From contig CALRHR010000001.1 of NCBI GenBank assembly GCA_943359485.1, positions 51,141 to 115,140 on the forward strand: DNA of 64,000 nt, in the 5' to 3' direction. Positions 2,401 to 62,133 of this stretch are shown here, piece after piece. The notes beneath the pieces were generated by a model. That model made no database searches and was not told the DNA's origin. It worked only from the letters and a program-made list of their open reading frames with translations. The position numbers were made by a program, and so were the translations under genes. Positions within the stretch are counted from its first letter, which is position 1. Each line of letters opens with the position of its first letter. Source of the stretch: Candidatus Nomurabacteria bacterium. GTDB lineage: Bacteria; Patescibacteriota; Minisyncoccia; Phycocordibacterales; UBA9973.

Positions 2401-2407
2401 TTTAAAT

Positions 2408-3049: not shown

Positions 3050-3081
3050 ATTCTTGAGGGCTACAAAAATGAGATGTAATC

Positions 3082-3113: not shown

Positions 3114-3121
3114 ATAATCAC

Positions 3122-3697: not shown

Positions 3698-3733
3698 TCT
3701 TACTCTACTAACGGCCGTCAGTTGGGTAAGATT
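3698..3733. promoter_or_regulatory. downstream copy of PaaX-like flanking palindrome (ATCTTACTCTACTAACGGCCGTCAGTTGGGTAAGAT)
   Basis: Matches the 3082-3113 element. Confidence 0.5.
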
Positions 3734-3966
3734 TGGATAATTGCTAGATTGCTAGATTGCTAGGAGTCTTCTTTTCTTCTTTTTCATGGCAGTATTCTTT
3801 TTGGGTTTTCTGTATTGTTCGTTTTTTTTATTTTCAGTATTTTTAATTATTACGACATTTAAAATGCATCAATATTAGACGATACAGGATGGGGCGGCGA
3901 GAATTGGGGAGATGGTTAATTTTCACAAAAATCTTGCTCTTCTCGGAGCCTTGCTGATGCTTTTGT

Positions 3967-4413
3967 CTATTCCTTTGCCTTGGGTGGTCTCTCTAGCTCT
4001 GCAATAGCTTGATCTAAAAAATCATTTGCTTTTTTTATCTCTTCTGCCGTAATTCTATTTTCCCCTGTCTTTCTATCTTCTCCTGTACGTAATCCTTCTT
4101 CAAATACTTTAAAATTTTCAAAATCAACTAGCAAACTTGCACTTAAATCTATCCTTGATTCTATCGCATGTAAAAAATATCTAACTATCTTCAGAAAAAA
4201 ACTTTTTCTGCATTTATATATAGCAAATTCTGGATTTGTTTTTGGAGTTAATAAGTATTCTGGTATTTCATCAATAAAATCATTACGAAAAATACGAAAT
4301 ATTTCTAAATATCGTTCTTTTGGACTTTCTATATTTTTTGTAGCAAGAAATTTTTGATTTAGCGCTCGTGTTTTAGACGTACCCTCATATGCAGTTGTTT
4401 GTCGAGCTTCCAT
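3967..4413 (-). CDS. hypothetical protein
   Basis: 148 aa ORF lying downstream of nrdB on the same strand. Confidence 0.45.
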   Translation of the reverse strand: MEARQTTAYEGTSKTRALNQKFLATKNIESPKERYLEIFRIFRNDFIDEIPEYLLTPKTNPEFAIYKCRKSFFLKIVRYFLHAIESRIDLSASLLVDFENFKVFEEGLRTGEDRKTGENRITAEEIKKANDFLDQAIAELERPPKAKE

Positions 4414-4471
4414 TTTTTTATTTTAATACATCCTTAAATGAATATTTTTATAGGAATTTAATTTACTTCTA

Positions 4472-5491
4472 TTATTTTTCTTCTCTTTTTTCTTCCTTTT
4501 TCTTTTCTTCCTTTTTGTGTCCGTGAGCGTCGACTTCGTAAGAAGTGTTTTGTTGTTCGAAAAAGTTTACCAGTTCAAATACATCGGTCGCTGTAGACAT
4601 CCATTTTGCAGGATTAGTAACACCGAAATGTGGTTCAAGTCCTAGTTCTTCCAGCCGGCGGTCGGCCACATACTGTACATATTGGTTCACATAGTCGGCA
4701 TTGAGTCCTAGAATCCCTTTAGGGAACATATCTTTGTTGTAATTATTTTCAAGACTTACTCCTTCAATAATAATATCTCTTATTTCCTTCGCAAATTCTT
4801 CAGTTAGGAGTTCTGGATTTTCTTCAAGAATTGTATGGATGAGCTGAATGCCAAATTTTAAGTGTAGAGATTCATCACGCAAGACCCAATTAATCATTGA
4901 ACCTAGATTGCGAAGCTGATTTCTCTGGCGGAAAGAAAGAGCTACCATAAAACCAGAATAAAACCAGGTGCCTTCCATTACTATGTTAGTGGCGACTAAG
5001 TTCCGCAAGAAATCTTTTTTGCCTTCAGTGGTTTCAATGTTGAGCGTGTCTTCTGTCATTCGGATAAGATATTTATTTACAAAATTTTCTTTTTTTACGA
5101 TCGAATCAATCTCTAAATGCACACCATAGACTCGGTCGCGGTCAAGCGGGAATGTTTCGAGCACATATTCAAAGGCGACACAGTGGTTCGCTTCTTCAAA
5201 CATTTGCTTGGCAATGTAGAGGTGGCATTCAGGAGATTTTAGATAGGGATAAATTCCAAGTGCCAGCGATCTGTTGACGATAAGTTCTGTAGGATTAAAA
5301 AATGCCATCAAAAATTCTACAGTATGTCTTTCATCCTCAGTCATATTTTTCCAGTCGGACAAATCTTCACCTAGTGGGATTTCGTGCGGGAACCAGCTGT
5401 TTCTAACTGCCTGATTGTAAAGGTCGTAAGCCCATTTATAATTCATGGGGTGTAGATTCATGTCTGTTGGGGATGCTTTTCCTAATATCAT
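4472..5491 (-). CDS. nrdB: ribonucleotide reductase class I beta subunit (R2, ferritin-like)
   Basis: Carries the di-iron ligand motifs (EANHCVAFEY, ESLH). It also has an unusual Lys/Glu-rich C-terminal tail. Confidence 0.85.
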   Translation of the reverse strand: MILGKASPTDMNLHPMNYKWAYDLYNQAVRNSWFPHEIPLGEDLSDWKNMTEDERHTVEFLMAFFNPTELIVNRSLALGIYPYLKSPECHLYIAKQMFEEANHCVAFEYVLETFPLDRDRVYGVHLEIDSIVKKENFVNKYLIRMTEDTLNIETTEGKKDFLRNLVATNIVMEGTWFYSGFMVALSFRQRNQLRNLGSMINWVLRDESLHLKFGIQLIHTILEENPELLTEEFAKEIRDIIIEGVSLENNYNKDMFPKGILGLNADYVNQYVQYVADRRLEELGLEPHFGVTNPAKWMSTATDVFELVNFFEQQNTSYEVDAHGHKKEEKKKEEKREEK

Positions 5492-5582
5492 AAAAATTAG
5501 TTTCTAGTTGCTAGGTTCTAGGTTCTAGCAGTTTATTTATTAATCTTTTCTAGTCCCTAGAAGCTAGTCCCTAACACCTAAC

Positions 5583-8273: not shown

Positions 8274-8741
8274 ATGTTTAGAAAAAACAAACAAGAGAGG
8301 ATTATGGTCTTTGGAACTTTCGATGGATTACACCCAGGACACCTTAATTTTTTCAAACAAGCGAGAAAATTATCCAAAACTCCCTTTTTGATCGTTTCGG
8401 TGGCGCGTGACCGCAATGTTTTTCGGATAAAAAAACAATTTCCAATTCTTCCCGAGAAGAACAGAGTAATTTTAGTTGAAAAATTAATTAAAAAAAATTT
8501 AGTAAACAAAGTTATACTCTCCGGAATAAAAAACCATATTCCGCATATTATAAAAGAGCGCCCTGATATAATTGCGCTTGGTTATGACCAAAAAGCTTAT
8601 ACTAAAAATCTTCAAAAAGATTTGAAAAATAAAGGCATCTTGATAAAAATAGTTCGTTTGAAGTCCTACAAAGAAAAAATCTACAAAAATAGTTTGCTCC
8701 GACCACTTCGCCCGAAAATAATCACCACCCCCTTCGCCTGA
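8274..8741 (+). CDS. cytidylyltransferase-like nucleotidyltransferase (RibL/FAD-synthase-like HxGH family)
   Basis: FGTFDGLHPGH is the (T/H)xGH nucleotidyltransferase motif. The probable start is the ATG at 8304. Confidence 0.6.
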   Translation: MFRKNKQERIMVFGTFDGLHPGHLNFFKQARKLSKTPFLIVSVARDRNVFRIKKQFPILPEKNRVILVEKLIKKNLVNKVILSGIKNHIPHIIKERPDIIALGYDQKAYTKNLQKDLKNKGILIKIVRLKSYKEKIYKNSLLRPLRPKIITTPFA

Positions 8742-8761
8742 AGCGAAGCGCCCCTCCTTTA

Positions 8762-8790
8762 AAAGGAGGGGAGGGTTACCACCTTGCTTG
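8762..8790 (+). terminator. stem-loop CCCCTCCTTTAAAAGGAGGGG after the nucleotidyltransferase gene
   Basis: Perfect 8-bp GC-rich hairpin. Confidence 0.4.
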
Positions 8791-22104: not shown

Positions 22105-22267
22105 TAAAGTATAAATAATTTTTAGAGCAAAGATTGAACTCTAACGAATCCAACAAAAATAATACGAATCGTAACATCCAAGGGTCGACGATGCAAAGCA
22201 TCGGAGATACTGAGGAGCGAAGCGACGAATGTACTGTTTTTTGTTTTGTTTCGTTCTAATTAACTTT

Positions 22268-23910
<1,643 letters not shown>

Positions 23911-24137
23911 TTGAAAACTATCCCGGTCCTCTTCGGAGGGCTGAGTGTCAGACCCGTTCTGACCGGATTTATTGAGTCGGTATTGTGTCGCTCAATTGAC
24001 GACACAATAGTTTTTGCTCAAACTTAAAATGAGCTAGACTATATGGAAAGACATATAAAATAAAAAAGTTTCAGCCTTCGGGCTGATCCGCCTCTGGCGG
24101 AAAAAAGGAACGAAACAAAACAAAGGACAGTAACAAA

Positions 24138-47013: not shown

Positions 47014-47032
47014 TGTCAAAGGCGGGCTTTGA
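47014..47032. repeat. REP hairpin GTCAAAGGCGGGCTTTGAC
   Basis: Perfect 7-bp stem; identical copies lie at 47658 and 47738. Confidence 0.7.
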
Positions 47033-47642
47033 CATCAAAATTCAGTGTTTGCTCTATAAAGTTTTTAGTGTCTCCAAAAGTTTCCAGTAAGAATTCTTTA
47101 CTAACTATTGGCAAGTTTCGGTCTGATGCATAATCATTATAACTACCCCACTGATATTCTTTTGGATGTTTCACTAATCCATCTTTTACTGGATTCATGT
47201 GAATATAAGATGATGTCCACATCAGCTGAGGATCGCCTTTAATAAGTACTGCCTTAAATTTGTCTTGAAAAACATGCCCAACTTTTTTATATTTTTTATT
47301 AATGTATCTAGAATAACTAGTACAAAGTTTTAACATTAATTTTGAAATTGGCATGTCTACAATTTGTTCAATTAGAAAATGGAAGTGGTTTGGCATCAGA
47401 CAAAAAGCATACAAATTAAAAGCCCCTTTTTCCATTTTAGTTATCCTGATTCTAGAGTAGGGTAGGGCAGTTAATTTTTCTTTGTTTAATTCTTCTTCAG
47501 TAAATCCCAAAGACAGTCCCAGTCTAAAGAGGAAAGCTCTATAATCCTGCTCATCGAAAAATATCTTCTCCTTATTATTGCCACGATTATAGATGTGATA
47601 AATACCACCAGGAGCAAATTCTTTAAAGTCTCTATTATTCAT
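47016..47642 (-). mobile_element. IS200/IS605-like Y1 (HUH) transposase, REP-associated tyrosine transposase type
   Basis: Contains YHIYNRGN, the HUH motif MPNHFHFLI and a catalytic Tyr region. REP hairpins flank it on both sides. Confidence 0.8.
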
Positions 47643-48325: not shown

Positions 48326-49624
48326 ATGAAAAGCAATTTTCAAATTATAGTTTTAGTTGTCTTTATTGTATTTGCCATTTTCGGCGTTTTGGTTTTTTCT
48401 GGCACTATACCGATAGGTGACAATGGTGAGCCGGGGTCTTTGGGCACAGTTACTTTATGGGGGACAGTCAAAAGCGAGGCGATGATTCCTATTCTCGAAG
48501 AATTCAATCTTGCCAACCCGACTTTTATCTTAAAGTATGTTCAGAAATCTACAGATTCGTTCGACCAAGACCTACTTGAAGCTTTAGCTGAAGGTAGGGG
48601 TCCCGACATTGTTTTCATGACAGATGAATTAGCATTTCACTATAATAATAAAATTTTTACCATTCCATTTGCCAGTTATCCGCTCGCTTCATTCAAAAAT
48701 AATTTCGCTAGTGCTGGAGAAGTTTTTCTGACTTCAAAGGGTATTATGGCTTTTCCTATTTCTATTGATCCGCTTGTGTTGTATTACAATCGTAGTATTT
48801 TAGATGCAAATGGTGTGGTGTATCCCCCAGTCTATTGGGACGAAGTCTCTCTACTTATTCCCACTTTAACCAAAAAAGACGATAGCAACAGAATATCAAA
48901 AAGCACCATAGCGTTGGGGCATTTTTCAAATATAGCTCATGCCAAGGACATTATTTCCACTTTATTTATGCAGGCGGGTAGCTCCATTGTAGCCGAGAAA
49001 AGTGGCATTTTTAGCTCTAGCTTGGATGTACCAGGTAGGCAAGATAACCCTAGTGCAAGTTTGAAATTTTACACTGACTTTGCCGACCCAAACAGCGAGT
49101 CGTATTCCTGGAATAAATCTTTTTCAAACTCCAGAGACAGCTTTTCCAAAGGGGACTTGGCATTTTATATTGGTTACGCGAGCGAGCTTTCATCGCTCAT
49201 AAATAAAAATCCGAATCAAAATTTCGGAGTGGCACCACTTCCACAAAAACGAAATGCTAATTTTAAATTAACCGGAGCTCACATTACTGGTGTTTCTCTT
49301 TTGTCATCTTCCAAGAACTTTTCTACCGCCCTTACTGCGGCGAGTCTCATAGCTACGAGCAACTTCGCTTCCAAATTTGCCACGATTTTTGGGGTAGCCC
49401 CAGCCCGCCGGGATCTGCTTGCCGTCAAAAAGGCGGATGATAGCTTTATGCCGACGGTGTACAATTCCGCGCTCTTCGGAAAGAGCTGGCTCGATCCTTC
49501 CCCCAAAGATACAGATGTTATCTTCCGCCTTATGGTCGATGGAGTTCTTTCCAACAGTATAACTCCGGACAATGCCGTATCCGATGCAGATAGCAGACTT
49601 AACATTTTATTGCTTCAGCCATAG
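48326..49624 (+). CDS. extracellular solute-binding protein (ABC transporter family 1-like), membrane-anchored
   Basis: Has an N-terminal TM/signal segment and resembles a periplasmic binding protein over its length. Confidence 0.5.
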   Translation: MKSNFQIIVLVVFIVFAIFGVLVFSGTIPIGDNGEPGSLGTVTLWGTVKSEAMIPILEEFNLANPTFILKYVQKSTDSFDQDLLEALAEGRGPDIVFMTDELAFHYNNKIFTIPFASYPLASFKNNFASAGEVFLTSKGIMAFPISIDPLVLYYNRSILDANGVVYPPVYWDEVSLLIPTLTKKDDSNRISKSTIALGHFSNIAHAKDIISTLFMQAGSSIVAEKSGIFSSSLDVPGRQDNPSASLKFYTDFADPNSESYSWNKSFSNSRDSFSKGDLAFYIGYASELSSLINKNPNQNFGVAPLPQKRNANFKLTGAHITGVSLLSSSKNFSTALTAASLIATSNFASKFATIFGVAPARRDLLAVKKADDSFMPTVYNSALFGKSWLDPSPKDTDVIFRLMVDGVLSNSITPDNAVSDADSRLNILLLQP

Positions 49625-49654: not shown

Positions 49655-50050
49655 ATGAAAAATATAAAAAAAATTCTCATAAATATCACGGCATTCCTGA
49701 TTGTATTTATGTTGCTTGTTACACCAGTATTGTCTTTTGCGTATAATATCAGGGATCCGATAGTGCCACCTTGTCCGGCGACTGGGTGTGGGTGGAATGA
49801 ATTTTTAATGCTTATAAACAATGTAATTTATTTTATTCTGTATGGTTTGGCTATGCCTATTGCTGCCATTATGTTTGCGTATGCCGGAGTTCTTCTCGTC
49901 CAAGCGCAAGGTGGGGAAGCCAAAACTAAAGCCAAAGAAATTTTCCTGAACGCTGTGTACGGCCTGGCCATAGCCGCCGCTGCCTGGCTGATAGTCAAAA
50001 CCTTACTCGCTGTGTTGGGTTACAAAGATGCCGCTTGGATTGGATTTTAG
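49655..50050 (+). CDS. small two-TM secreted/membrane protein, member of paralog array (pilin-like architecture)
   Basis: Signal peptide, a CPATGC pair, then helix, an AKTKAK loop and a second helix. Confidence 0.55.
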   Translation: MKNIKKILINITAFLIVFMLLVTPVLSFAYNIRDPIVPPCPATGCGWNEFLMLINNVIYFILYGLAMPIAAIMFAYAGVLLVQAQGGEAKTKAKEIFLNAVYGLAIAAAAWLIVKTLLAVLGYKDAAWIGF

Positions 50051-50053
50051 TGT

Positions 50054-50482
50054 GTGTATGTTATAATAAAAGCAATGAAATTTATTAAGAAAAATTTTTA
50101 TATCATAGTACTGCTGACTTTTTTGGTTGTTATGCCTATCCTTTCTTTTGCGCAAGCTACGCCTGGCGGGAACCCTATAAGTACACCTGGTGGAAATGCC
50201 GGATGTGACCCCTCGAAGAAAATCTGCAATCCGATAAAAACCGACACCTTAAATGGCTTTATCAGGGCTATCCTTGAAGGCGTCTTCAAGATCGGCTTGC
50301 CTATTTTAGCGTTGGCATTTGTTTTTGTTGGTTTTCTGTTTGTGCAGGCCAGGGGTAATTCGGAAGAATTGACCAAGGCCAAAGATGCTCTGTTGTATAC
50401 TTTAATCGGTGCAGCGGTGATCCTCGGGTCGTGGGCTATCGCACAGCTTATCACTGAAACAGTGACCGCATTAAAACCGTAA
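50054..50482 (+). CDS. small two-TM protein paralog
   Basis: Signal peptide ending SFAQA, a Cys pair, then helix, an EELTKAKD loop and a second helix. Confidence 0.55.
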   Translation: MYVIIKAMKFIKKNFYIIVLLTFLVVMPILSFAQATPGGNPISTPGGNAGCDPSKKICNPIKTDTLNGFIRAILEGVFKIGLPILALAFVFVGFLFVQARGNSEELTKAKDALLYTLIGAAVILGSWAIAQLITETVTALKP

Positions 50483-50517
50483 GGTATGGTTGATTATTAA
50501 TAAAAATAAAAATAAAT

Positions 50518-50820
50518 ATGATGTGTAATCAAGAAGGTTTAATTGAAATGGTGTGTAGGTTGGGTGATCTTTTCAGTATTGTTGTTCCGGTATTAGTGGG
50601 CTTGGGAGTTGTTTACTTTGTCTGGGGTGTCGTTCAATATGTTATTGCTGATGATGTAGAGGCAAAGTCGAAGGGCAAAGACAGGATAATCTTTGGCATT
50701 ATCGGTTTGGCTGTGATTGTTAGTTTGTGGGGGTTAGTGTTCATTCTTACGGATACTTTTTTTGGTGTAGATGCAGGCATGGAAGGTGCCCCTGATTTTC
50801 AAGGTCTACTTCCTGAATAA
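50518..50820 (+). CDS. small two-TM protein paralog
   Basis: Has the core YFVWGVVQYVIADDVEAKSKGKDRIIFGIIGLAVIVSLWGLV. Confidence 0.55.
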   Translation: MMCNQEGLIEMVCRLGDLFSIVVPVLVGLGVVYFVWGVVQYVIADDVEAKSKGKDRIIFGIIGLAVIVSLWGLVFILTDTFFGVDAGMEGAPDFQGLLPE

Positions 50821-50825
50821 AAAAT

Positions 50826-51563
50826 ATGAAAAAATACGCACAAAAAATAGTAAAATTTATTCCAATACTTTTTATTTTAACCTTTGTTCCATTTTTAGTT
50901 TTTGCCCAACCCATACCCCCTTCTGCGCCTTCCGGTTTGGCTGCTGTAATAAATAAAATCAGTGCTTTGCTTAGCTCACTTCTCCCCGTACTTATTTCCC
51001 TAGGAGTACTCTATTTTATTTGGGGAGTTATTATTTATTTTATTGCTGACGATGCAGAGGCAAAGTCGAAGGGCAAAGACAGGATAATCTACGGCATTAT
51101 CGGCCTTGCTGTCATTGTCAGTGTTTGGGGACTGGTTGCCATCTTAAATCAAACTCTTGGTTTGAGTGGGAACTCTGGTTTATCTGGCGTGAGTGCTCCT
51201 TCTAGTATTTCAAATTTGGCACCCTCTTCCAATGTATTACCTTCATGTTCATATATGATAAGTAATAAACCAAAGCTGGCGAATTATCTGGAGTACTTTA
51301 CTTGTATAATTGCTCAATCAGTCATCCCACTTATCTTTGCCATAGCTGTCGTGACCTTTATCTGGGGTGCGGTAAAGTTCTTTATCATCAATGCGGAAGA
51401 GGAAGCCAAAAGAGATCAGGGCAAGCAGTTCATGCTCTGGGGTATTATTGCCCTCGCGGTGATGATCAGTGTTTGGGGTTTGGTCAAAATTCTGGGAGAG
51501 ACCGTGAATATAGATACAAACTATCTGCCTTCAGTTCAGCCGTACAGTTCATCCCGGCCGTAG
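50826..51563 (+). CDS. small two-TM protein paralog with a tandem-duplicated helix-loop-helix module
   Basis: Signal peptide followed by two copies of the module (ADDAEAKSKGKDRIIYG... and NAEEEAKRDQGKQFMLWG...). Confidence 0.55.
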   Translation: MKKYAQKIVKFIPILFILTFVPFLVFAQPIPPSAPSGLAAVINKISALLSSLLPVLISLGVLYFIWGVIIYFIADDAEAKSKGKDRIIYGIIGLAVIVSVWGLVAILNQTLGLSGNSGLSGVSAPSSISNLAPSSNVLPSCSYMISNKPKLANYLEYFTCIIAQSVIPLIFAIAVVTFIWGAVKFFIINAEEEAKRDQGKQFMLWGIIALAVMISVWGLVKILGETVNIDTNYLPSVQPYSSSRP

Positions 51564-51620
51564 CCCTTGCTTTTATTATTAGTATGTTTGTGTTAGAATT
51601 AACAGGTCGTTTATTAATTA

Positions 51621-51700
51621 AGTCAGGTACTAGGTGTTAGGCGCTAGGCATTAGCATAAAATCAAGCTAAAGCTTAAAGTCTAAATTCCTAAAGCCTAAA
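51621..51700. repeat. CTAGGC/CCTAAA hairpin repeat element
   Basis: The arms CTAGGTGTTAGGCGCTAGGCATTAGC and GCTAAAGCTTAAAGTCTAAATTCCTAAAGCCTAAA are imperfectly complementary. Confidence 0.6.
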
Positions 51701-51703
51701 AAA

Positions 51704-52090
51704 ATGAAAAATAAATTAATGGTTTTGTCGGGTTTTGTTATGGGTTTGGTTCCGGTCGTGGCGTTAGCGCAGAATACTGGTGGTACTCCTACTGTGTGTA
51801 CTGCGGGTCCTGTGACAACCTTTCAGGGTGCCTTGTGTAAAATTGGGGAGATTATGAATGCAATCATTCCGATTTTGATAACACTGGGTGTACTGTACTT
51901 TGTCTGGGGAGTTATTTCGTATGTTATTGCTGATGATGAAGAGGCAAAGTCAAAGGGACGAGACAGGATAATCTACGGTATTATCGGCTTGGCTGTTATC
52001 ATTTCTGTTTGGGGATTGGTGAAGATTTTGTCAAATACTTTTGGGCTTACAAATGTACAGCAAATTACTTTTCCGACTGTTTCTTACTAA
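51704..52090 (+). CDS. small two-TM protein paralog
   Basis: Signal peptide and a Cys pair, then the core YFVWGVISYVIADDEEAKSKGRDRIIYGIIGLAVIISVWGLV. Confidence 0.55.
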   Translation: MKNKLMVLSGFVMGLVPVVALAQNTGGTPTVCTAGPVTTFQGALCKIGEIMNAIIPILITLGVLYFVWGVISYVIADDEEAKSKGRDRIIYGIIGLAVIISVWGLVKILSNTFGLTNVQQITFPTVSY

Positions 52091-52140
52091 TCTATAAAGT
52101 GTCGCACCAAGAATCGTGCGACATGATTTCGTAAAATCAC

Positions 52141-52488
52141 ATGAATTTATTTCTCGGTCTTTTCTCTGCCAGGGTGGCTTATGCGAGCGTTGATACCTTT
52201 ATGAATAGCGTAGGCGAGCTTATCATAAATCCGCTCATCAATTTTCTTTTTGCTCTAGCGGTGGTGTATTTTCTGTATGGCGTGTTTGAATTTCTGTCCA
52301 ATCAGGAAAATGAAGACAAGAGAACAGCCGGCAAGAGCCACATGCTTTGGGGAATTGTCGGCATCACCATCATGATGGGTGTGTGGATCATCTTTGGTCT
52401 TATTCTGGACACTTTTAACTTAAGAGGTGACATAGATGTCAGTTCAGGAGGGGTTATAAATGTGAAGTTGCCACCATACAATCCTTAA
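52141..52488 (+). CDS. small two-TM protein paralog (divergent)
   Basis: A helix, an ENEDKRTAGKSHMLWGIVG loop and a second helix. Confidence 0.45.
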   Translation: MNLFLGLFSARVAYASVDTFMNSVGELIINPLINFLFALAVVYFLYGVFEFLSNQENEDKRTAGKSHMLWGIVGITIMMGVWIIFGLILDTFNLRGDIDVSSGGVINVKLPPYNP

Positions 52489-52624
52489 TAGAGAATTCAT
52501 CTCAAGAGAATAAATTCAAATTAGAGACATAAAAAGGGCGACTTCGCAAAAGCGAAGTCGCCCTTTTAGGTTCTGGAGTCAGTTTACTTTGCACAGCATA
52601 GATCTTTTGTGGTATACTGCAACT

Positions 52625-52855
52625 ATGAAAAATATCATTCAATTTTCAATCGAAAAAGGGCAGGATGGGTATTACATTGCTACAGCAAATGATTTTGCTA
52701 TTATTACCCAAGCGAAAAATTTAGAAGATTTGTTTGTAAATATTAAAGAAGCCACCGAGCTTCACTTTGAAGAAATTTTAGAAGAAGAAACATCTCTGAG
52801 CCGCAATCCTTCAATTTTTATAAACTACGAAATGCCTATCGCGCTCTATGCCTAA
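52625..52855 (+). CDS. hicB: HicB-family antitoxin
   Basis: UPF0150-like over IEKGQDGYYIATANDF...IKEATELHFEE, and it overlaps hicA. Confidence 0.6.
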   Translation: MKNIIQFSIEKGQDGYYIATANDFAIITQAKNLEDLFVNIKEATELHFEEILEEETSLSRNPSIFINYEMPIALYA

Positions 52856-53090
52856 ATTAAAGCGACTTTCTGGCAAAGAAGTCATAACTTTTTGTGAACA
52901 ACACAATTTTAGTATCAGTAGACAGAAAGGAAGCCATATTAATTTGGTACGAATTGTTTCAGAGAAAAAACAAGTGGTGACCGTGCCAAATCATAAAGAA
53001 ATAGACAGAGGAACATTGCATAATATTTTCAAGAAACTGTCTTCATTCATTCCTGAAGAAGATTTAAGAAAATTTTTCTTTACTGACTAG
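52848..53090 (+). CDS. hicA: HicA-family toxin (mRNA interferase)
   Basis: LKRLSGKEVITFCEQHNFSISRQKGSHINL matches the HicA KGSH motif. Confidence 0.65.
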   Translation: MPKLKRLSGKEVITFCEQHNFSISRQKGSHINLVRIVSEKKQVVTVPNHKEIDRGTLHNIFKKLSSFIPEEDLRKFFFTD

Positions 53091-53102
53091 GTAAAATCAA
53101 AA

Positions 53103-53160
53103 AGGCGGTCGTTCATCGCTGAACGGGTCCGCCTTTTGTTTTGCGCGTGGGGCTCGCACG
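53103..53160. terminator. bidirectional terminator hairpins
   Basis: AAAGGCGGTCGTTCATCGCTGAACGGGTCCGCCTTTTGTTTTG, plus a second hairpin CGCGTGGGGCTCGCACGCG. Confidence 0.6.
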
Positions 53161-53248
53161 CGCGATGTTTTCATGAGCCCTCCTTTCTCCGAAGTTGATC
53201 TGCTTCGGGCAGAGACCTTCTTTGCGCTGGTCAGGCGCTCCGAGAGAA

Positions 53249-54253
53249 TTACTCCCGGATGTATACACCTGTGGCTGGGGTTGCCCCCTCGCCACAGAAC
53301 TTCCAGATCCCCGCCATCCCGATGGACGGCGGGGGGGTGGTGCCGAAGGTCTCTGTATGAGATCCTCCGTCCGGGTCAAACACCTTCATGGAGCCCCGAT
53401 CGGGACCCCACTGGCTGTTGATCCGTAGGTTCCGTTCGTAACAGCCATCTGTTCCGAACGGGTAGAGGGTGGGTGTCGGCCCTACCTTCGCGGGCGCCGG
53501 GGCTGTCGAGGCCACCGGCGTGGATGTCCGGCTACCTGCCGGTGAGGGGGGTGCGGGAGGTAACAATCCCCCAAAAAATCCACCCACTGTCTCCCGGATC
53601 TCGGTCCCGACCCGTTGGGCTACTTTGTCGCCGACTACAGCCTTTTTTGCTGTGTCGATAGCCACTGGGCCGATGCCGCGCCCCTCGGATGCCGCCTGAT
53701 CTGCTTCCTCCCACTTCGTCGTGGGGGCGGGAATCGCGGGGACCGTCATTGGCGTCGCCGACTTCGGCCGAGCCATCTCGGCCGATCGTGGCATTTCCCT
53801 TGCCACGAAAAGGGAAATCAACACTATTCCGAAGATGGTGAGCGCTGGCTTCACTCGGCCGTGTGCCGTCATTGCGGCGATCACGACCGAACAAAAAAAC
53901 AGCGCTACCCAAATTAAGATATCCGTACTGGCTGTTGGGTATAGCCATGGGCGTGGTCCCGTGGTGAGAAAGTAGCTGAAGGCGAAGTTATTGCTAACTC
54001 CGACAACAGTAGTTCCCACCATCATGACGAATGTAAGCGTAGAGAACCCGACGATGAATTTCTTCATTCCATCGGAAATTCCGCCGCCGTGTGCCGCCGC
54101 GGGTCGCGAGAGGCCGCCCCAGCCTTGGTGCTGGGCCAGCTTGTAAAGGCCGTACAGCACTCCGCCGACGATAGCGACGGTCCAGGGGTTCCAGCCGAAT
54201 GAGCTCGACACCCAATACACTCCCAGGGCCGCGATTGCAAATTTCCAAAACAT
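53249..54253 (-). CDS. polytopic membrane protein with Pro/Thr-rich extracellular C-terminal region (GC-rich island gene C)
   Basis: Several predicted TM helices and a high-GC codon bias. The leader repeat lies immediately upstream. Confidence 0.55.
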   Translation of the reverse strand: MFWKFAIAALGVYWVSSSFGWNPWTVAIVGGVLYGLYKLAQHQGWGGLSRPAAAHGGGISDGMKKFIVGFSTLTFVMMVGTTVVGVSNNFAFSYFLTTGPRPWLYPTASTDILIWVALFFCSVVIAAMTAHGRVKPALTIFGIVLISLFVAREMPRSAEMARPKSATPMTVPAIPAPTTKWEEADQAASEGRGIGPVAIDTAKKAVVGDKVAQRVGTEIRETVGGFFGGLLPPAPPSPAGSRTSTPVASTAPAPAKVGPTPTLYPFGTDGCYERNLRINSQWGPDRGSMKVFDPDGGSHTETFGTTPPPSIGMAGIWKFCGEGATPATGVYIRE

Positions 54254-54254
54254 T

Positions 54255-54600
54255 TCATTTCTTCCTTAACTCCGTCCCCTTGACTGGGCAACATGGAGTT
54301 GGAGCAGACTGATCAGAGTACTACAACCGCTTGCGCGTTTGTCTTACTTTGAATAGTCTGCCCGCTAGGAAGCCGGATTTTTTCTCTCCTCTCCTTACCC
54401 CCTCCGCTTTCAGCACCTCCCCCTAAATAGGGGGAGGCCGGGTAGGGGTACAAAGGGGTGAGGGTTCAGCTACATGGCGGGCAAACCATTCATTTTGCTC
54501 GAAATTCTACTTACTTCTTATTTAATTTTCGAAGGTCAGCTTTACCTATGTATTGTATCACACTTATGACAAAAAGTCAAGCCCTTTGGGCTGAATTTGT
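54255..54600 (-). promoter_or_regulatory. ~310-bp AT-rich leader, copy 1: near-consensus sigma-70 promoter plus structured 5' UTR
   Basis: On the minus strand the promoter reads TTGACT-N17-TACAAT (about 54560-54590). The leader has a conserved P1 hairpin UCGAAAAUU...AAUUUCGA and a closing helix UGCCCG/CGGGCA around a variable GC-rich core. It is duplicated at 56190-56500. Confidence 0.6.
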
Positions 54601-54783
54601 CCTTATTTTGTAAGGTTAAAATGATAAAAGGGCCGCCTCAGTGAAGAGACAGCCCTTTGTTTTGCGCTGGGCCTGTGCGCGATTTGGGCCCTGGGTTGAC
54701 GAGTCCCCGTTGCGTCACTCTGGTTTGTTCCCTCCAGACGGGAGACCTCTATTTTGTAAGCGCTGGTCAGGTGCTTTGTCTTT

Positions 54784-55281
54784 TTAGGGGCAGTACCGGC
54801 TTGCCCCCTCTTCGAGGGGGTTGAACGGCCGTTTCTTCCCGTCCTCCCCGACGATCTCGTCGGGGCAGCCGAATTTCTTGTGTTTGGGGGTCCCTACCCC
54901 CAGAATTTTGTCGACGGCCTGGTCGAGCGCTTGCCCGACAGAGACCGCCGACTTGCCGTCGCCGAGTCCAAGACTCCCGAGGACCTTGTTGATCCCCTCG
55001 AGGGCCGCGTTCCCGGCGGTCTTTCCGATCTCAAGCGCGCGCCGATTGCGCAGCGCGCGGGCCTTGGCTAGAATCGTCGGAGTGCTGTCCTCCGGATGCG
55101 CCTCGAGCCAGGCCAGCGTCTTGCTGGCCCCGTCATAGAGCGCCTTCGCTCCCTCGATTGTTGTAGCGGCTGGAGCCTTCTCCAGAGCCGCCACTTTCTG
55201 CGCCATTTTTTCTTGTCGGCTGGCGCCACAACCGACCGCCGTGAGTGCCACGGCGAGCACGAACGTCAAGAGGAAATTCAT
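54784..55281 (-). CDS. putative lipoprotein (GC-rich island gene B)
   Basis: The signal sequence MNFLLTFVLAVALTAVGC has a lipobox-like Cys, and a strong GGAGG SD lies upstream. The region is high-GC. Confidence 0.5.
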   Translation of the reverse strand: MNFLLTFVLAVALTAVGCGASRQEKMAQKVAALEKAPAATTIEGAKALYDGASKTLAWLEAHPEDSTPTILAKARALRNRRALEIGKTAGNAALEGINKVLGSLGLGDGKSAVSVGQALDQAVDKILGVGTPKHKKFGCPDEIVGEDGKKRPFNPLEEGASRYCP

Positions 55282-56153
55282 TTCTTCCCTCCCCCTCCAA
55301 ACATTCCCTTGACTATCCACTCCAGGGGCTGGGTGACTACCTCACCCAGGGAGTGTTTGGCGGCCAACTCCCCAATGCCGCCAATCTTCCATTTCCTAAT
55401 ACCCCCGAGGACCTCGTCCCAACGGGAGCAGACGATGGCTCCGACGAGCGCTATCATCTGCCACCCGAGAACTCCCCACCCCATAGCCTTCTCCCCGAAG
55501 AGAAACGAGTTAATGGTTGCCCAAAAACCGAATTCCCCCAGGGGATCCTCGAGCGGAGTCGTTGCCACAGCCCAGAACTGGGCTTTGGCGATTTCGATGG
55601 GGTTTAGGGTTGCTGGCGCCGCGGTAGGGTCCACCCACCACAAAAACACCACCCCTAACACCATCCACACCGTCGTGCGAAGTACCCAGTTGTTGTCGCC
55701 GAGCCGGATCAGGACACTCCGCCCGATCTCCGCAGCCCCACGGCCGTGAGTCTCGATTCCCGCGAAGATGGCGAAGACCGCGAGCGTGGTCACGAGGGCA
55801 ACTAGCGTAAAGGCTGGGTAGCCGAACCAAAAACCGAAGACGATCCAGTAGAGTACTATGAACAGCGCCCCCCAGAATCCCACGGTCTTCGGCTTGATCA
55901 CTACCTCGCCTTCGTCGCAAGCGCCATCGCCTACGACTTCGGCCCTAATGATGTGTCGTCCCGGTTTGAGGTCTTTGAGCTCGAAGCTCGCGACCCCGCC
56001 TTCCGTCTTTACGGCGCGCTTGCGCTTGCCGTCGACCGAGAAACGAACCTGGACTTCTTTCTCGCCACCTTTTTTCCCGGCGGTGGCCGGCCGGTCTGAC
56101 ACGACGGCTTCCGCCACCGTGTCTTTCTCTACTAAACTCAAAGTCAAAATCAT
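55278..56153 (-). CDS. membrane protein with N-terminal soluble beta-rich domain (GC-rich island gene A)
   Basis: Starts MILTLSLVE after an AGGAGA SD, has several TM helices and shows high-GC codon bias. Confidence 0.55.
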   Translation of the reverse strand: MILTLSLVEKDTVAEAVVSDRPATAGKKGGEKEVQVRFSVDGKRKRAVKTEGGVASFELKDLKPGRHIIRAEVVGDGACDEGEVVIKPKTVGFWGALFIVLYWIVFGFWFGYPAFTLVALVTTLAVFAIFAGIETHGRGAAEIGRSVLIRLGDNNWVLRTTVWMVLGVVFLWWVDPTAAPATLNPIEIAKAQFWAVATTPLEDPLGEFGFWATINSFLFGEKAMGWGVLGWQMIALVGAIVCSRWDEVLGGIRKWKIGGIGELAAKHSLGEVVTQPLEWIVKGMFGGGGKK

Positions 56154-56189
56154 TATCTTTCTCCTAATCAAATTTTTTCTCGAGCACAC

Positions 56190-56500
56190 GATTCAGAATA
56201 CTACAACCACTTGCGTGTTTGTCGTTTCCTGAATAGTCTGCCCATCAATGAGCCGATGCATTTCCTCTCCCTGCGAAGGGGGAGATTTGAGAGGGGGTCT
56301 CAAGAATTACCACCCCTAGCCCCTCCTTAATCAAGGAGGGGAGGAAACATAAAATACTCAGCTTCTTAACGGGCAAACCATTCATTTCCCCGCCAGTCTG
56401 GCCGGGGTAAATTGCTCGAAATTCTACTTACTTCTTATTTAATTTTCGAGTAACAGCTTTACCTATGTATTGTATCACACTTATGACAAAAAGTCAAGCC
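56190..56500 (-). promoter_or_regulatory. ~310-bp AT-rich leader, copy 2
   Basis: About 100 bp are near-identical to copy 1, including TTGACTTTTTGTCATAAGTGTGATACAATACATAGGTAAAGC, and the same P1 hairpin and closing helix are present. Confidence 0.6.
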
Positions 56501-56626
56501 TAAATGCTCCAAAACAGCCTTATTTTACAGGCTATTTTGGGGCATTATTGACATTAGTCTTGTATTGTGTTTTTAAAAAAGTCTATAGTTCTTGTCTTAA
56601 TCTAATTCAAATGATATTATATAAAT

Positions 56627-56857
56627 ATGAACACCGTAACCTTACCCAAAAATCAATACATGCAAATTTTAAGCACTCAAGACAAATTTCAAGTGGATTT
56701 GTCTCGCTTGGAGAGAATGGTTTCTTATATGGTTCAAGATGAAGTTAGTCCGGTGTATATGACCAGACTTTCTAAGATAGAGAAAGGTCTTTCCGCTGGC
56801 AAAGGTGTTAAGTTTAAAAATAAAAGTGAACTCAAAAAATTCTTTCGTTCTTTATAG
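56627..56857 (+). CDS. putative antitoxin partner of a RelE/ParE toxin
   Basis: 76 aa ORF sitting 2 nt upstream of the toxin gene. Confidence 0.45.
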   Translation: MNTVTLPKNQYMQILSTQDKFQVDLSRLERMVSYMVQDEVSPVYMTRLSKIEKGLSAGKGVKFKNKSELKKFFRSL

Positions 56858-56859
56858 TT

Positions 56860-57144
56860 ATGAATAATTTAGAGAAGATGAATTTTATTTTTTCTCTGGA
56901 ATTTAAAAAAATTCTAGAGAAAATGGCAAAGAAAGATAAATTAGGATTAAAAAAAATAGAAGACCAAGTATATAAAATAATCTCTAATCCACTCATAGGT
57001 AAACCTCTTCGTAATGTTATGAAAAGTTATCGACGAGTTCATATAGGGCATTTTGTTTTGATTTATAAAATAGAGAACGGAGAGATAACATTTGCAGATT
57101 ATGACCATCATGATCGCATTTATAAAAAATATTCTCTAACCTAA
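56860..57144 (+). CDS. RelE/ParE-family toxin
   Basis: KPLRNVMKSYRRVHIGHFVLIYKIENGEITFADYDHHDRIY is a RelE/ParE signature. Confidence 0.65.
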   Translation: MNNLEKMNFIFSLEFKKILEKMAKKDKLGLKKIEDQVYKIISNPLIGKPLRNVMKSYRRVHIGHFVLIYKIENGEITFADYDHHDRIYKKYSLT

Positions 57145-59810: not shown

Positions 59811-59895
59811 TGGTGCTGGAGGGGGGACTCGAACCCCCAAGCCTTGCGGCACTAGTTCCTAAGACTAGCGCGTATACCAATTCCGCCACTCCAGC
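59811..59895 (-). tRNA. tRNA-Leu (anticodon UAG)
   Basis: Cloverleaf with a long variable arm, anticodon loop CUUAGGA and an encoded CCA end. Confidence 0.8.
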
Positions 59896-59953
59896 GTCTT
59901 TTCAAATATACTTCGTATTTGAAATTTCGATTCACGAAACCGACGCTGGAGTG

Positions 59954-59985
59954 TCGGCCTCCTCACTTTGTTCGGATGAAAAATA
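59954..59985. terminator. perfect 14-bp hairpin GGATGAAAAATAAA-GCAG-TTTATTTTTCATCC
   Basis: Lies downstream of tRNA-Lys on the minus strand. Confidence 0.5.
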
Positions 59986-60035
59986 AAGCAGTTTATTTTT
60001 CATCCACTCCAGCTTCTAAAGTGCTCATGCACTTT

Positions 60036-60110
60036 GTGCGTCCAGAAGGGATCGAACCTTCGACCTTATCCTTAAGAGGGATCTGCTCTACCAGCTGAGC
60101 TATGGACGCA
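60036..60110 (-). tRNA. tRNA-Lys (anticodon CUU)
   Basis: Acceptor stem TGCGTCC/GGACGCA and anticodon loop CUCUUAA. CCA is not encoded. Confidence 0.75.
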
Positions 60111-60251
60111 AATATATTCAATTTTAAAACAAGACTTTACCATTAATAATCTTTCGACCTACCAAAACAGCTATGGACGCAAATATATTTAATTTTTAAA
60201 CAAGACTTTACCACCAACAATCTAACGATTTACCAAAACAGCTAAGGGCGC
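60097..60251. repeat. tandem ~72-bp duplication that includes the first 14 nt of tRNA-Lys and its upstream region
   Basis: AGCTATGGACGCAAATATATT...CCAAAAC occurs twice, followed by a third partial copy AGCTAAGGGCGC. Confidence 0.7.
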
Positions 60252-60291
60252 ATGTTTAATTTTCTAAAATAATTACAAATTTATAATTATT

Positions 60292-60376
60292 CTGGTGCTC
60301 GGGATGGGAGTCGAACCCATACCCCTTACGAGATTCGATTTTAAGTCGAACGCGTATACCAATTCCGCCACCCGAG
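60292..60376 (-). tRNA. tRNA-Leu (anticodon UAA)
   Basis: Long variable arm, anticodon loop CUUAAAA and an encoded CCA end. Confidence 0.8.
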
Positions 60377-60570
60377 CAGTTGTCTAAGTCTAACTGAAAA
60401 AAGTATTTTTTTCAATCCCTATTTACAGATTACATATCAGGTTATATAATATTCAGATGAGTATGGAAACTTCCGATCCCCAACTATCATTAGGAAATTC
60501 TGAGCTCTTGGAAGACCTAAAGTCACTCGTTGCTAAAAGATTATAAAAAATGAGATAGTATATTATTTAT

Positions 60571-61089
60571 ATGTCGGAAAAACTATTCAAAAGTGTCCCT
60601 AGTGCAGTTATTGAGAGAACTGAAATGGGTATGGTGGGACAAGTAAGAGAACTCGTAAGATTGATTCTTTGGGATAAAGTTCTGCGCGATAAACTTGTAG
60701 ACAATCCAATTGGAAAAGAAGGTCTGGATGCACTCAAGAGGCTCGGCAAAAATTTTTCTATTGTTCTTGCGGATAGTGTCCCCGTCTTAGGATCCGTTGT
60801 TCATTGGAGTGCAGATGTCTTAAAATTATCAAAACATGATGCAACTCCGGATGTTTCCAAATTAACAGCATGGGGAGCAAATATAATTGATGTATTAACT
60901 CTTGATACTATTCCCTCATATTGGATTCAAGCAGCTCTTCAATTGAGAAAAGATCTACCTAAGCTTCAGGCATTATTGAAACTTATTCAGAAGATACGCA
61001 CAGAAGAGATGGAAGATTATGAGGAAAATCAATCTCAAGTTGATGGTGCAATAAGAGTTTTTGGCACCGAAGAAAGAGATGAAAAATAA
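60571..61089 (+). CDS. hypothetical protein
   Basis: 172 aa ORF. Confidence 0.45.
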   Translation: MSEKLFKSVPSAVIERTEMGMVGQVRELVRLILWDKVLRDKLVDNPIGKEGLDALKRLGKNFSIVLADSVPVLGSVVHWSADVLKLSKHDATPDVSKLTAWGANIIDVLTLDTIPSYWIQAALQLRKDLPKLQALLKLIQKIRTEEMEDYEENQSQVDGAIRVFGTEERDEK

Positions 61090-61092
61090 AAT

Positions 61093-61323
61093 ATGGATAA
61101 AAAAGAAGCTTTAAAAATACTTATAGAACACAGTTTTGTCTTCACTAAAGATGTGCAAGAAAAATTGATTGCGGGTATTCCCGCTATGACTTTGCGAGAT
61201 GTTGATGCTCTGGGCAAGCTTTTAGCGTCACTAAAACAAAAGAGTATTATTTCTTATGATGCTGACATGAAGAAAATAAATCAAATGATTTTGGTGGTTG
61301 AAAAAGAAAAGGGAAGTGTCTGA
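61093..61323 (+). CDS. hypothetical protein
   Basis: 76 aa ORF starting immediately after the preceding ORF. Confidence 0.4.
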   Translation: MDKKEALKILIEHSFVFTKDVQEKLIAGIPAMTLRDVDALGKLLASLKQKSIISYDADMKKINQMILVVEKEKGSV

Positions 61324-61341
61324 TGTTTTTCTGTTTCTTTG

Positions 61342-61413
61342 AGGCGTGGGTGGGAATCGAACCCACGCATGTCGGTTTTGCAGACCGAAGCGTTACCATT
61401 TCGCCACCACGCC
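61342..61413 (-). tRNA. tRNA-Cys (anticodon GCA)
   Basis: Acceptor stem GGCGTGG/CCACGCC and anticodon loop CUGCAAA. Confidence 0.75.
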
Positions 61414-62133
61414 TTTTAAATGAAAATCGATTATTTTTCTAATTTTCCTATCAACAACCTTTGGTCGTAATTCAAAGTAGTTATTGAATATTTTAAATTT
61501 TCGCATAAAAAATGAATTAATGCTAGTGCCTTTGTATATTAGTTTGAATATTTGTAGAGAATCTTTTGTGTTGTATATTGCTTGGAAAGATCTCTTACTT
61601 GAATAAATTTTACCTTCTTTAATCCCAATTTTTCTAAAAACATGATTCATTTTTTCAAGAAATATTTTACTACCACTAGTAAATATCACACGAACCCTTT
61701 TTATTATTAATTTTTGGGTTTTACCTTTGGTTTGTGCAAAGTGAACACATCCATCTCCATCAAAATATCCCCTCATAAAATGACCTAAGTATTTTTGTGG
61801 AACTTTTGGGAACTTTATAGTTAGAGATTTGTTTGGATATAGACCTAATCTAAAAAGGTCATTGTATATTTTATGACTACCTATTCTTAACGCAAAGCAA
61901 ACTTTTCCTCTGATAAAATTCGACCTTTTCTGGTTTGTTTTGTGTTCTGAACCCAACCATGTTTTTATTCTTTCTATGGAATCTTTATCTGTGCTAGCTA
62001 TTTGGATATATTTACCACGCATATAAGGTGAATCATCCAAACTTCCATCAGCATAAATATATCCCAAAACATAGGCCATATTCGGGGACCATTTTTCGAA
62101 GAATTTTTCATTAACTTTATATTTTATTCCCAC
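61393..62133 (-). CDS. LAGLIDADG-family homing endonuclease (two-motif, single-chain)
   Basis: Two LAGLIDADG motifs are present (LGYIYADGSL and MRGYFDGDGCV). The last 7 codons GGC GTG GTG GCG AAA TGG TAA coincide with the 5' end of tRNA-Cys on the same strand. Confidence 0.75.
   Translation of the reverse strand: MGIKYKVNEKFFEKWSPNMAYVLGYIYADGSLDDSPYMRGKYIQIASTDKDSIERIKTWLGSEHKTNQKRSNFIRGKVCFALRIGSHKIYNDLFRLGLYPNKSLTIKFPKVPQKYLGHFMRGYFDGDGCVHFAQTKGKTQKLIIKRVRVIFTSGSKIFLEKMNHVFRKIGIKEGKIYSSKRSFQAIYNTKDSLQIFKLIYKGTSINSFFMRKFKIFNNYFELRPKVVDRKIRKIIDFHLKGVVAKW

Follow-up and report, generated by a model that had tools for sequence, protein, structure and literature searches.

In a 64,000-nucleotide (nt) stretch of DNA from a Candidatus Nomurabacteria bacterium, a tiny organism from groundwater (assembly GCA_943359485.1, contig CALRHR010000001.1; hereinafter, the window), an island of high G+C content (GC) on the minus strand consists of two tandem copies of a lineage-specific, self-contained expression cassette for polymorphic, predicted cell-surface proteins. 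Each copy comprises a promoter, a long leader RNA, GC-rich cargo and a 3' tail, and cassettes of this kind, carrying one to three GC-rich genes, are present in related bacteria. The leader is a new structured RNA family without a match in Rfam. The Shine-Dalgarno (SD) sequences and the GC richness of the cargo are old, maintained properties of the cassette, and their maintenance remains puzzling because the 16S rRNA of this bacterium lacks the anti-SD and the native genes look leaderless.

The two promoters (56469..56497 and 54552..54580, both on the minus strand, as are all elements of the island) are identical in sequence, with TTGACT, a 17-nt spacer containing TG, and TACAAT. They match the sigma-70 consensus, with an extended -10, at 10 of 12 positions and are the two best such matches in the region, so that the near-consensus TTGACT-N17-TACAAT elements proposed in the initial annotation, one before each transcription unit, hold up. 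Most of the related leaders carry the same type of promoter, TTGACTTTT-N12-GATAnAAT, with close variants in the loci denoted here L080 (both copies) and L081. A second, internal promoter candidate, TCGAAA-N17-TAGAAT, occurs in the window copies and was discarded as not conserved across the family. At the other end of the units, the tail that follows gene B (54627..54783) contains the conserved motifs CCTGACCAGCGC and GCGCAAAACAAAGGG and an intrinsic terminator at 54627-54658, and the tail that follows gene C (53096..53248) contains CCTGACCAGCGC, a GC hairpin, CGCGCAAAACAAAAGG, and then a terminator hairpin with a T-run (~53096-53137); tails of the latter type were also found in L018, L071 and L085. 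The two tails are homologous, sharing CCTGACCAGCGC, GCGCAAAACAAARGG and the terminator hairpin, and it follows that the repeated unit is promoter-leader-cargo-tail, present twice, a feature overlooked earlier.

Measured in 300-nt segments, GC is 0.55-0.65 between 53100 and 56100, with a dip to 0.47 at the internal leader (54.3-54.75 kb). At the island edges it drops to 0.33 at 52.8-53.1 kb and to 0.26-0.31 beyond 56.4 kb; the immediate flanks are at 0.26-0.34 and the mean of the whole window is 0.39. The ~60% GC first attributed to the island is thus real, whereas the background is in the high 30s rather than the mid-30s. The island genes (GC 0.59-0.64) are atypical in composition compared to the genome (0.39), most clearly at third codon positions, where GC (GC3) is 0.72, 0.77 and 0.675 in genes A, B and C, respectively, against ~0.40 in the flanking genes. 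All three minus-strand open reading frames (ORFs) show the periodicity of GC over codon positions 1/2/3 that signals coding (A, 0.60/0.45/0.72; B, 0.66/0.48/0.77; C, 0.57/0.56/0.675), which bears out the assignment of three genes in two units, A-B and C.

Gene A (55278..56153; SD TAGGAGAAAG) encodes a 291-amino acid (aa) protein with an N-terminal immunoglobulin-like beta-sandwich followed by a helical membrane domain; in the AlphaFold2 model, the predicted local distance difference test (pLDDT) score of the beta-sandwich is ~70-76, with transmembrane helices after it. Gene B (54784..55281; SD GGAGGGGGAGGG), the start of which overlaps the stop of gene A by 4 nt (ATGA), encodes a 165-aa lipoprotein with the lipobox LTAVGC. 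Gene C (53249..54253) encodes a 334-aa protein in which a Pro/Thr/Ala linker connects a conserved polytopic N-terminal domain to a C-terminal beta domain that is swappable. Several observations caution against reading a function into this cargo. Searches of A, B and C against Pfam, PHROGs and PADLOC yielded sub-threshold noise only; the AlphaFold2 models are poor overall (pLDDT of 60 for C and 49 for A), too low for fold assignment; and a Foldseek search against PDB gave nothing significant, the weak cupin-like matches to the C-terminal beta domain having E >= 0.035. The designation of the products as putative surface proteins is based only on the transmembrane helices, the lipobox, and the genomic neighbourhood. 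An NfeD-like partner of SPFH proteins was considered as the identity of the C-terminal domain and dropped, as neither Pfam nor Foldseek supported it.

The leaders upstream of A-B (leader 1, 56154..56468, ~315 nt) and of C (leader 2, 54254..54551, ~298 nt) both fold far more stably than shuffled sequences, with minimum free energies of -115.9 kcal/mol (z = -6.85) and -108.7 kcal/mol (z = -5.32), respectively. They have in common the block AAATGAATGGTTTGCCCG, a closing helix and a 3' block, and differ in the GC-rich core. After the long hairpin, each contains a small GCAA-capped hairpin block (56199..56223 and 54319..54343), and these blocks differ by one compensatory pair, A-U to G-C. At the gathering threshold, Rfam 15 recognizes only the 16S rRNA and four tRNAs in the whole window; in 52900-56700, all matches at E <= 10 are weak, the best being ftsZ-DE at 26.8 bits (cutoff 72.2), which falls on a terminator. 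Thus, the Rfam search suggested at the outset assigned the leader to no family.

The first related leaders came from contigs encoding homologues of A and C. A pattern scan of GTDB genomes produced three true matches, all in Candidatus Nomurabacteria metagenome-assembled genomes (MAGs), the remaining 36 of 39 being chance matches in Clostridia and other taxa; one of these MAGs (L039) holds two leader copies 1.77 kb apart. In metagenomes, 12 of 13 matches to the pattern were true, and all 12 possess the TTGACTTTT -35 element, which the search pattern did not demand. A covariance model, which in the window matches leader 2 at 54348-54494 with 56.6 bits, added further copies in L080 (two), L081, L085 and L086. 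Scans of viral contigs returned 14 matches to a 16-mer, about the chance level, none to the 3' block, and four unrelated ones to the promoter pattern. In total, 19 distinct leader copies, 128-318 nt in length, were recovered from Nomurabacteria-like Parcubacteria, and the leader is indeed conserved beyond the window. The 5' part of the leader includes an unstructured, AU-rich stretch of ~50 nt in which YUUGAAAA is invariant, and most leaders have one or two GCGCC-loop-GGCGC clamp hairpins before the SD; L085 is a minimal leader in which the hairpin runs straight into AAGGAG. Pairing of YUUGAAAA with the 16S tail (5-6 nt) was considered and rejected as too short and too inconsistent.

All the copies share a single structure, an imperfect hairpin of 25 bp, (G)RAUAGUUUGCCCRYCAAGUAGCY - loop - RGGCUCUUURRYGGGCRAACUAUYC. 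In leader 1, it spans 56231..56383, with the 5' arm at 56359-56383, the 3' arm at 56231-56255 and a GC-rich apical insert of 103 nt at 56256-56358; in leader 2, it spans 54351..54491, with the arms at 54467-54491 and 54351-54375 and a 91-nt insert at 54376-54466. Across 18 mutually related leaders, 90% of the cells in the hairpin are paired, and shifting the partner by 1-3 columns lowers this to 29-47%; both sides are changed in ten pairs (such as U-A/C-G at column 7/66 and A-U/G-C at column 17/56), and none of 500 shuffles attained the covariation score. RNAalifold, applied to eight full-length leaders, predicts the 25-bp helix and no other, with the SD unpaired in the consensus fold. With 55 G-U cells and 16 A-C cells, the fold is better on the transcribed strand than on the complementary one. 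Non-pairs are fixed as well: column 23/50 is unpaired in 15 of the 18 leaders, with a loose internal loop at columns 16-19. The invariant columns fall mostly in paired positions. The initial description of a conserved structured RNA with compensatory changes is therefore upheld, although several of its elements are not features of the family. The conserved 'P1 hairpin' is confined to the two copies in the window; the conserved 3' block is common to those two and, beyond them, was found only in L017 and L082, as was the GCAA-capped hairpin block; and the variable GC-rich hairpin core, present in both window copies, is an optional insertion.

Indeed, the apical loop measures 5-17 nt in 12 copies, and seven copies, the two from the window among them, have tips of 77-103 nt. 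These long tips consist of GC-rich CCUCCCC...GGGGAGG palindromes and lengthen the rod coaxially to ~60 bp. Similar intergenic palindromes, CCCCUCC...GGAGGGG, are located at 8730-8780 of the window, after an unrelated gene, and at 6740-6800 of L086, upstream of a promoter; they resemble a small family of dispersed repeats, REP-like (repetitive extragenic palindrome) or terminator-like. Because such palindromes occur away from leaders, the variable core is best read as a dispersed palindromic element inserted in a tolerant loop.

The base of the hairpin contains the start codon of a short upstream ORF (uORF). An in-frame ATG is present in 12 of the 18 leaders in the frame xGU-UUG-CCN-NNN-AAG-UAG, against 4 and 1 in the other two frames and 3.1 +/- 1.6 on average in shuffles (maximum 9 in 2000), in agreement with the conserved short uORF start that was initially noticed. 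The peptide conforms to M-x-(S/G)-L-P-(A/T/I)-K, with the UAG stop inside the 5' arm of the hairpin. In leader 2, the uORF (54470..54493) reads MNGLPAM-stop and ends at this UAG; in leader 1 (56245..56385; MNGLPVKKLS...), it is 46 codons long because the usual UAG of the family is AAG there. The distance from the ATG to the arm takes five different values, which argues against simple shared ancestry of the start codons.

The reading that we favour, with a confidence somewhat short of even, is that the leader senses translation: uORF translation and hairpin folding would be mutually exclusive and would set the fate of the mRNA. The promoter would be constitutively active, and a ribosome on the uORF would have to melt the hairpin, such that hairpin formation would report translation status; the folded or unfolded state would then determine mRNA stability, processing or ribosome access and, hence, cargo output. 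A number of facts speak against this scheme. Neither the consensus nor the single-sequence folds contain an alternative pairing, a terminator, or an SD-sequestering helix that would tie the hairpin to the cargo, so that the proposed switch lacks its output step. Start codons at the hairpin base imply that the folded hairpin should itself hinder initiation; five leaders have GTG or TTG alone, and L077 has no uORF start; and the conservation of the peptide could be a by-product of stem conservation. The hairpin is also dispensable in some genomes, being absent from L082, L017 and the first unit of L018, which has a promoter and a short leader without it. In L082 and L017, only the 3' arm and the GNRA-hairpin block are left upstream of A, and A-B-C persists. 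Finally, because the leaders are phylogenetically related, the shuffle statistics overstate independence. In L082 (545-1012) and L017 (1-130), the closest relatives of the window's cassette, a low-GC 107-aa ORF replaces the promoter and the 5' arm.

Leader-peptide attenuators, such as those of ermC, cat, trp and tna, are the obvious comparison: in these, as in the cassette leader, a long 5' untranslated region (UTR) ahead of SD-led genes forms a stable hairpin whose 5' arm is overlapped by a short uORF (a putative one in the cassette), and in both cases, a translating ribosome would remodel the fold. The cassette leader differs in that it has no terminator, alternative pairing or SD sequestration by the helix, in the freely variable tip, and in belonging to a host that apparently lacks SD-led initiation altogether. 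Accordingly, of the attenuator suggested in the initial annotation, a candidate uORF overlaps the hairpin, with an in-frame ATG in 12 of the 18 leaders, GTG or TTG in five and no start in one, and mutually exclusive pairings, be they terminator/antiterminator or SD/anti-SD, do not occur in the folds; no T-run was found in the leaders after the hairpin or the clamps. Pairing of CUCUUU in the 3' arm with the SD was tried and rejected, being too short and too inconsistent.

The main rival, which we consider appreciably less probable but take seriously, holds that the hairpin is a site of double-stranded RNA processing or protein binding, for instance, by RNase III, and that the uORF is incidental. 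Cleavage of the 25-60-bp rod would shed the 5' segment, and the message would start near the GC-clamp hairpins and be stabilized. Known RNase III hairpins, such as the early sites of phage T7 and those in the lambda N, rnc and pnp leaders, are imperfect duplexes of at least 22 bp with internal mismatches, and hairpins are kept at the new 5' end. By analogy, the cassette leader would resemble them in having an imperfect, mismatch-bearing duplex within an mRNA leader: its helix of 25 bp, with 90% of the cells paired, is longer than the ~20 bp of duplex expected of an RNase III substrate; the apical inserts extend it coaxially; the mismatches at column 23/50 and columns 16-19 are conserved; the sequence is conserved in the stem and variable at the tip, as expected of a site read in the stem; and GC-clamp hairpins lie directly 5' of the SDs, both in the leaders and between cistrons. 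Processing, however, leaves the enrichment of in-frame ATGs unexplained and fares no better with the loci in which the hairpin is missing. The cassette further differs from the known sites in that a uORF is embedded in the arm. Processing and translation sensing by the leader could coexist.

The cargo genes themselves are set apart by their translation signals. In the window and in the related cassettes, AGGAG or GGAGG is located 5-9 nt upstream of the start. Across 13 loci, the median duplex free energy (dG) with a canonical anti-SD is -8.3 kcal/mol for cassette genes versus -2.5 for native ones, and dG <= -7 kcal/mol is reached by 72% of the cassette ORFs (the rest being mostly spurious) versus 7% of 102 native ORFs, with the best start within 15 codons allowed for both. 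The strong GGAGG/AGGAGA sites first reported for the island, and their absence from native genes, are thus borne out. The 16S rRNA (22266-23911), however, has no canonical anti-SD at its predicted 3' end (23898-23911): in the Rfam alignment of the gene, GGAAUAAUUCAAUU is present where GGAUCACCUCCUU is expected, against GGAUcACCUCCUUu of the model, and no CACCTCCTT (the CCUCC tail) was found downstream of the 16S end in the window. A CCUCUUCGGAGG hairpin lies 20-40 nt further downstream, and the gene, at 1646 nt compared to 1533 positions of the model, carries insertions. Native genes with SD-less starts, for example, at 24890, 28803(-), 34087, 47801 and 58745(-), follow another pattern. A TAnnnT box, often TG-extended, precedes the ATG by 3-10 nt in 40% of the native genes versus 6.6% of random positions; given the proximity of this -10-like box to the ATG, the default mRNA in this bacterium is probably leaderless, and so, by sequence, are most of the native genes.

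The cassette occupies a recurrent locus, shared by at least 10 related genomes. In the window, it lies at the far end of an array of six divergent tandem paralogs of the VirB2-like T4SS_pilin family (PF18895; type IV secretion system, T4SS), all above the Pfam cutoff (49655..52488, plus strand). The cassette is convergent with the last gene of the pilin array in L039, L071, L075, L076, L078, L080, L081, L082 and L086, TerC borders its other side wherever this is visible, and in L086 the block GyrA-methyltransferase-SBP-six pilins is syntenic with the window, where a solute-binding protein (SBP_bac_1, 48326-49624), a methyltransferase and GyrA lie upstream of the array. Among the loci recovered, all of them via leader or cargo, a route that does not sample genomes lacking the cassette, the island is at the syntenic site in every related locus, with no patchiness seen; L077 is the one leader copy at a different locus. 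The cargo varies at this fixed position. The order A-B then C, each with its own leader, is found in the window, L039, L071, L080 and L085; A-B-C forms a single operon in L019 and L082; an SPFH-like protein with a small lipoprotein is encoded in L070/L057, L075, L076 and L086; and L077 has other cargo. The SPFH/Band 7 profile (PF01145) scores 42.3 bits for the L075 cargo (cutoff 23.6) and a sub-cutoff 18.2 for L076, and does not match L070. Within the C family, a conserved membrane domain is joined to C-terminal domains of three unrelated types, and these types are also encoded on their own, as small lipoproteins, in the SPFH cassettes. Relatives are 89-94% identical to the window in TerC, 53-78% in the two distal pilins, and 26-66% in the cargo. 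Discrete types were found for the N-terminal domain of C as well, with no correspondence to the identity of the flanks, and vertical co-divergence of cargo and flanks was rejected (Spearman rho -0.30, not significant). The identity gradient and the discrete types of C form the pattern of a polymorphic surface locus, with alleles exchanged among relatives.

Composition, SDs and incongruent cargo together raise the question of origin. According to the initial annotation, the island genes came by horizontal transfer from a donor with high GC and SD-led translation (perhaps the host of the bacterium) and were captured under native AT-rich leaders; a softer form of this scenario invokes ancient or repeated transfer from an unsampled reservoir. 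A GC3 of 0.68-0.77, far above ~0.40, canonical SDs in a genome without an anti-SD, cargo types at odds with the flanks, cargo content that varies at one locus, and the toxin-antitoxin (TA) modules flanking the island in the window are all compatible with transfer, as is the weak match of the C-terminal beta domain to two phage tail-fibre-like proteins, one of them on a contig with 66% GC. However, searches of 5.8 billion clusters found 7, 6 and 12 relatives of A, B and C, respectively, and each one with visible contig context sits in the same cassette arrangement in the Candidate Phyla Radiation (CPR). An exhaustive search of 1.84 billion representatives with the C profile returned 125 proteins, ~45 full length and ~80 small, with the C-terminal beta domain only; just one of the ten clusters looked up carries a taxon name, Candidatus Paceibacterota, and it lies in the same locus. 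No homologue from a non-CPR or GC-rich cellular context came up in these searches, and tblastn of A and C against phage genomes gave no match. The homologues with context lie in low-GC CPR genomes with a similar local composition, an outcome that the initial annotation had named as refuting its scenario: the cargo is at 0.52-0.65 and the flanks at 0.31-0.44, the elevation being only slight in L075 and L077. This contrast at the same locus in relatives implies that high GC is an old, maintained cassette feature, and the island is not a recent import from a high-GC donor. Nor does the idea that native leaders were placed over imported genes survive as a recent event, given that leader and GC-rich cargo occur together at the same site across the relatives. 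The locus is the same in all relatives examined, with cargo identity down to 26-30%, and is hence old, yet not ameliorated; the GC-rich clamp hairpins, moreover, belong to the shared leader, whatever the cargo. We therefore regard transfer from a high-GC donor, even in its softer form, as unlikely.

The phage connection of the C-terminal beta domain is a lead only. In hmmsearch, this domain matched P0068 (E 2e-9) and P0143 (E 9e-4), whose contexts are those of phage tail or lysis genes, and hhalign did not confirm the link (E 0.06 and 0.25). Large tail-fibre-like phage proteins with four repeats each that weakly match the domain are encoded at 6001-9405 of L088 and 1405-4260 of L089, one after tape-measure and Phage-tail_3 genes and the other before a lysozyme gene.

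Could the hairpin be, instead, a recombination site at the DNA level, folding as single-stranded DNA by analogy with integron attC sites or IS200/IS605 ends, with the RNA fold as a by-product? Imperfect arms with a variable centre resemble the attC architecture, and the cassette hairpin has imperfect arms, fixed mismatches, and a centre of 5-103 nt; tandem units carry their own hairpin copies (window, L039, L071, L080), cargo is replaced at one locus, and there is an IS200-like Y1 transposase gene at a distance of 6 kb. We nevertheless deem this very unlikely. There is no consistently linked integrase or transposase, and none at all between the pilins and TerC in L039; the hairpin is located at the 5' end, downstream of the promoter, rather than at the 3' ends of the cassettes; its arms are strongly conserved in sequence, unlike those of attC, and as GTTTGCC/GGCRRAC, do not fit the RYYYAAC/GTTRRRY integron cores; the G-U excess is on the transcribed strand; and the covariance model detects no similar hairpin beside the IS200-like gene. 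Furthermore, the 3' part of the leader, with the GC clamps, is common across cargo types, which would place any exchange point at the SD, not at the hairpin. Like phage morons (promoter-gene-terminator) and integron gene cassettes, the cassette is a compact, self-contained unit whose GC is atypical and whose cargo can be exchanged at a fixed platform, and integron attC sites share with it an imperfect hairpin with a variable centre. It differs from these systems in being a chromosomal locus inherited within a lineage, in lacking an integrase and an attC core, in having the hairpin transcribed, 5' of the cargo, and in carrying a promoter in every unit.

Because the cassette genes are the only ones with long leaders, SDs, high-GC codons, a consensus promoter and terminators of their own, beside a T4SS pilin array, one may also speculate, as a long shot, that they are built for decoding by a translation system other than the default one of the bacterium. 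Possible forms of this idea are expression in a high-GC, SD-using host after transfer, a bacterial analogue of transferred DNA (T-DNA), or a leader whose uORF, hairpin and CCUCC-rich inserts let anti-SD-less ribosomes initiate internally on SD-led messages. Marginally more remote still is a riboswitch, that is, a ligand-binding aptamer controlling the cargo, another of the initial suggestions. A long, conserved, structured 5' UTR with covariation upstream of membrane-protein genes invites this interpretation, but what is conserved is a single unbranched, rod-like helix without a junction, with conservation in paired positions rather than junctions or loops, a tip that accepts 100-nt insertions, no terminator or SD-sequestering expression platform, and no Rfam family even at E <= 10. 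As for a chimeric assembly, in which a GC-rich contig was misjoined to an AT-rich genome, the sharp composition steps at both edges and the end of one public contig ~540 nt past the island (~window 52555) might suggest it, but the recurrence of the junctions in independent assemblies (an NCBI contig, a 1.9-kb Logan contig with the AT-rich leader and A-B, a 179.9-kb contig with B and C, and contigs from >10 other samples with the same fusion of AT-rich leader and GC-rich cargo) excludes it for practical purposes.

The surroundings of the island include several other elements. TA pairs bracket it in the window (HicB-like/HicA at 52589-53090 and antitoxin/ParE at 56627-57144) and are absent at the syntenic L039 locus; in L075, a HicA/HicB-like pair lies between TerC and the leader. 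The IS200-like transposase gene (PF01797) is at 47016-47642 on the minus strand. A perfect 16-bp inverted repeat, AAAAGGGCGACTTCGC / GCGAAGTCGCCCTTTT, follows the last pilin gene at 52532-52567, and the NCBI contig CBCEWA010000011.1 ends inside it, at ~52555. In L080, a contig from Hainich groundwater, an rve-family (IS3/IS481-like) transposase gene is located between the A-B unit and the C leader (2155-3102). Upstream of the L086 cassette (308-5706), there are genes for a large serine recombinase (Resolvase + Recombinase), a 1346-aa TPR/PIN-TPR-GreABC protein and an N6_N4 methyltransferase, which could represent an insertion, mobile or defence-related, at this hotspot. Beyond the island, an ORF at 61393-62133 (minus strand) shows a weak LAGLIDADG_3 match (precomputed annotation, L015 4075-4761) and adjoins a tRNA gene (61342-61413) in a cluster of four (59814-61413). 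No integrase was found beside the island in the window or in L039, and no VirB4 or other T4SS machinery in the examined part of the window.

VirB2-like pilin arrays are known in CPR/Patescibacteria (bioRxiv 10.1101/2025.01.22.634366), and the locus described here resembles these arrays and the variable pilin and surface loci of Bartonella and Anaplasma in that divergent T4SS_pilin paralogs lie beside highly variable envelope proteins. By analogy, this arrangement suggests a role in host or phage interaction. Cassettes combining a leader, GC-rich cargo and SDs do not come up in the passages of the preprint that were consulted. About half of Parcubacteria are reported to have lost the anti-SD (Tsurumaki et al. 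2022, RNA 28:1041, PMC9297842), and the 16S 3' tail without CCUCC found here is alike; the passages of that article consulted here do not mention SD-bearing genes in such genomes, whereas here one cassette family keeps its SDs.

Thus, the leader is a first candidate cis-regulatory leader RNA with comparative support for CPR/Patescibacteria, and it is tied to a hypervariable envelope locus beside VirB2-like pilin arrays, the presumed mediators of episymbiosis. The cassette also poses a testable paradox, namely, SDs and ~60% GC kept over long divergence in genomes of ~39% GC without an anti-SD. Resolving this paradox would inform on anti-SD-less initiation on leadered mRNAs, the upkeep of local base composition, and surface variation in symbionts.

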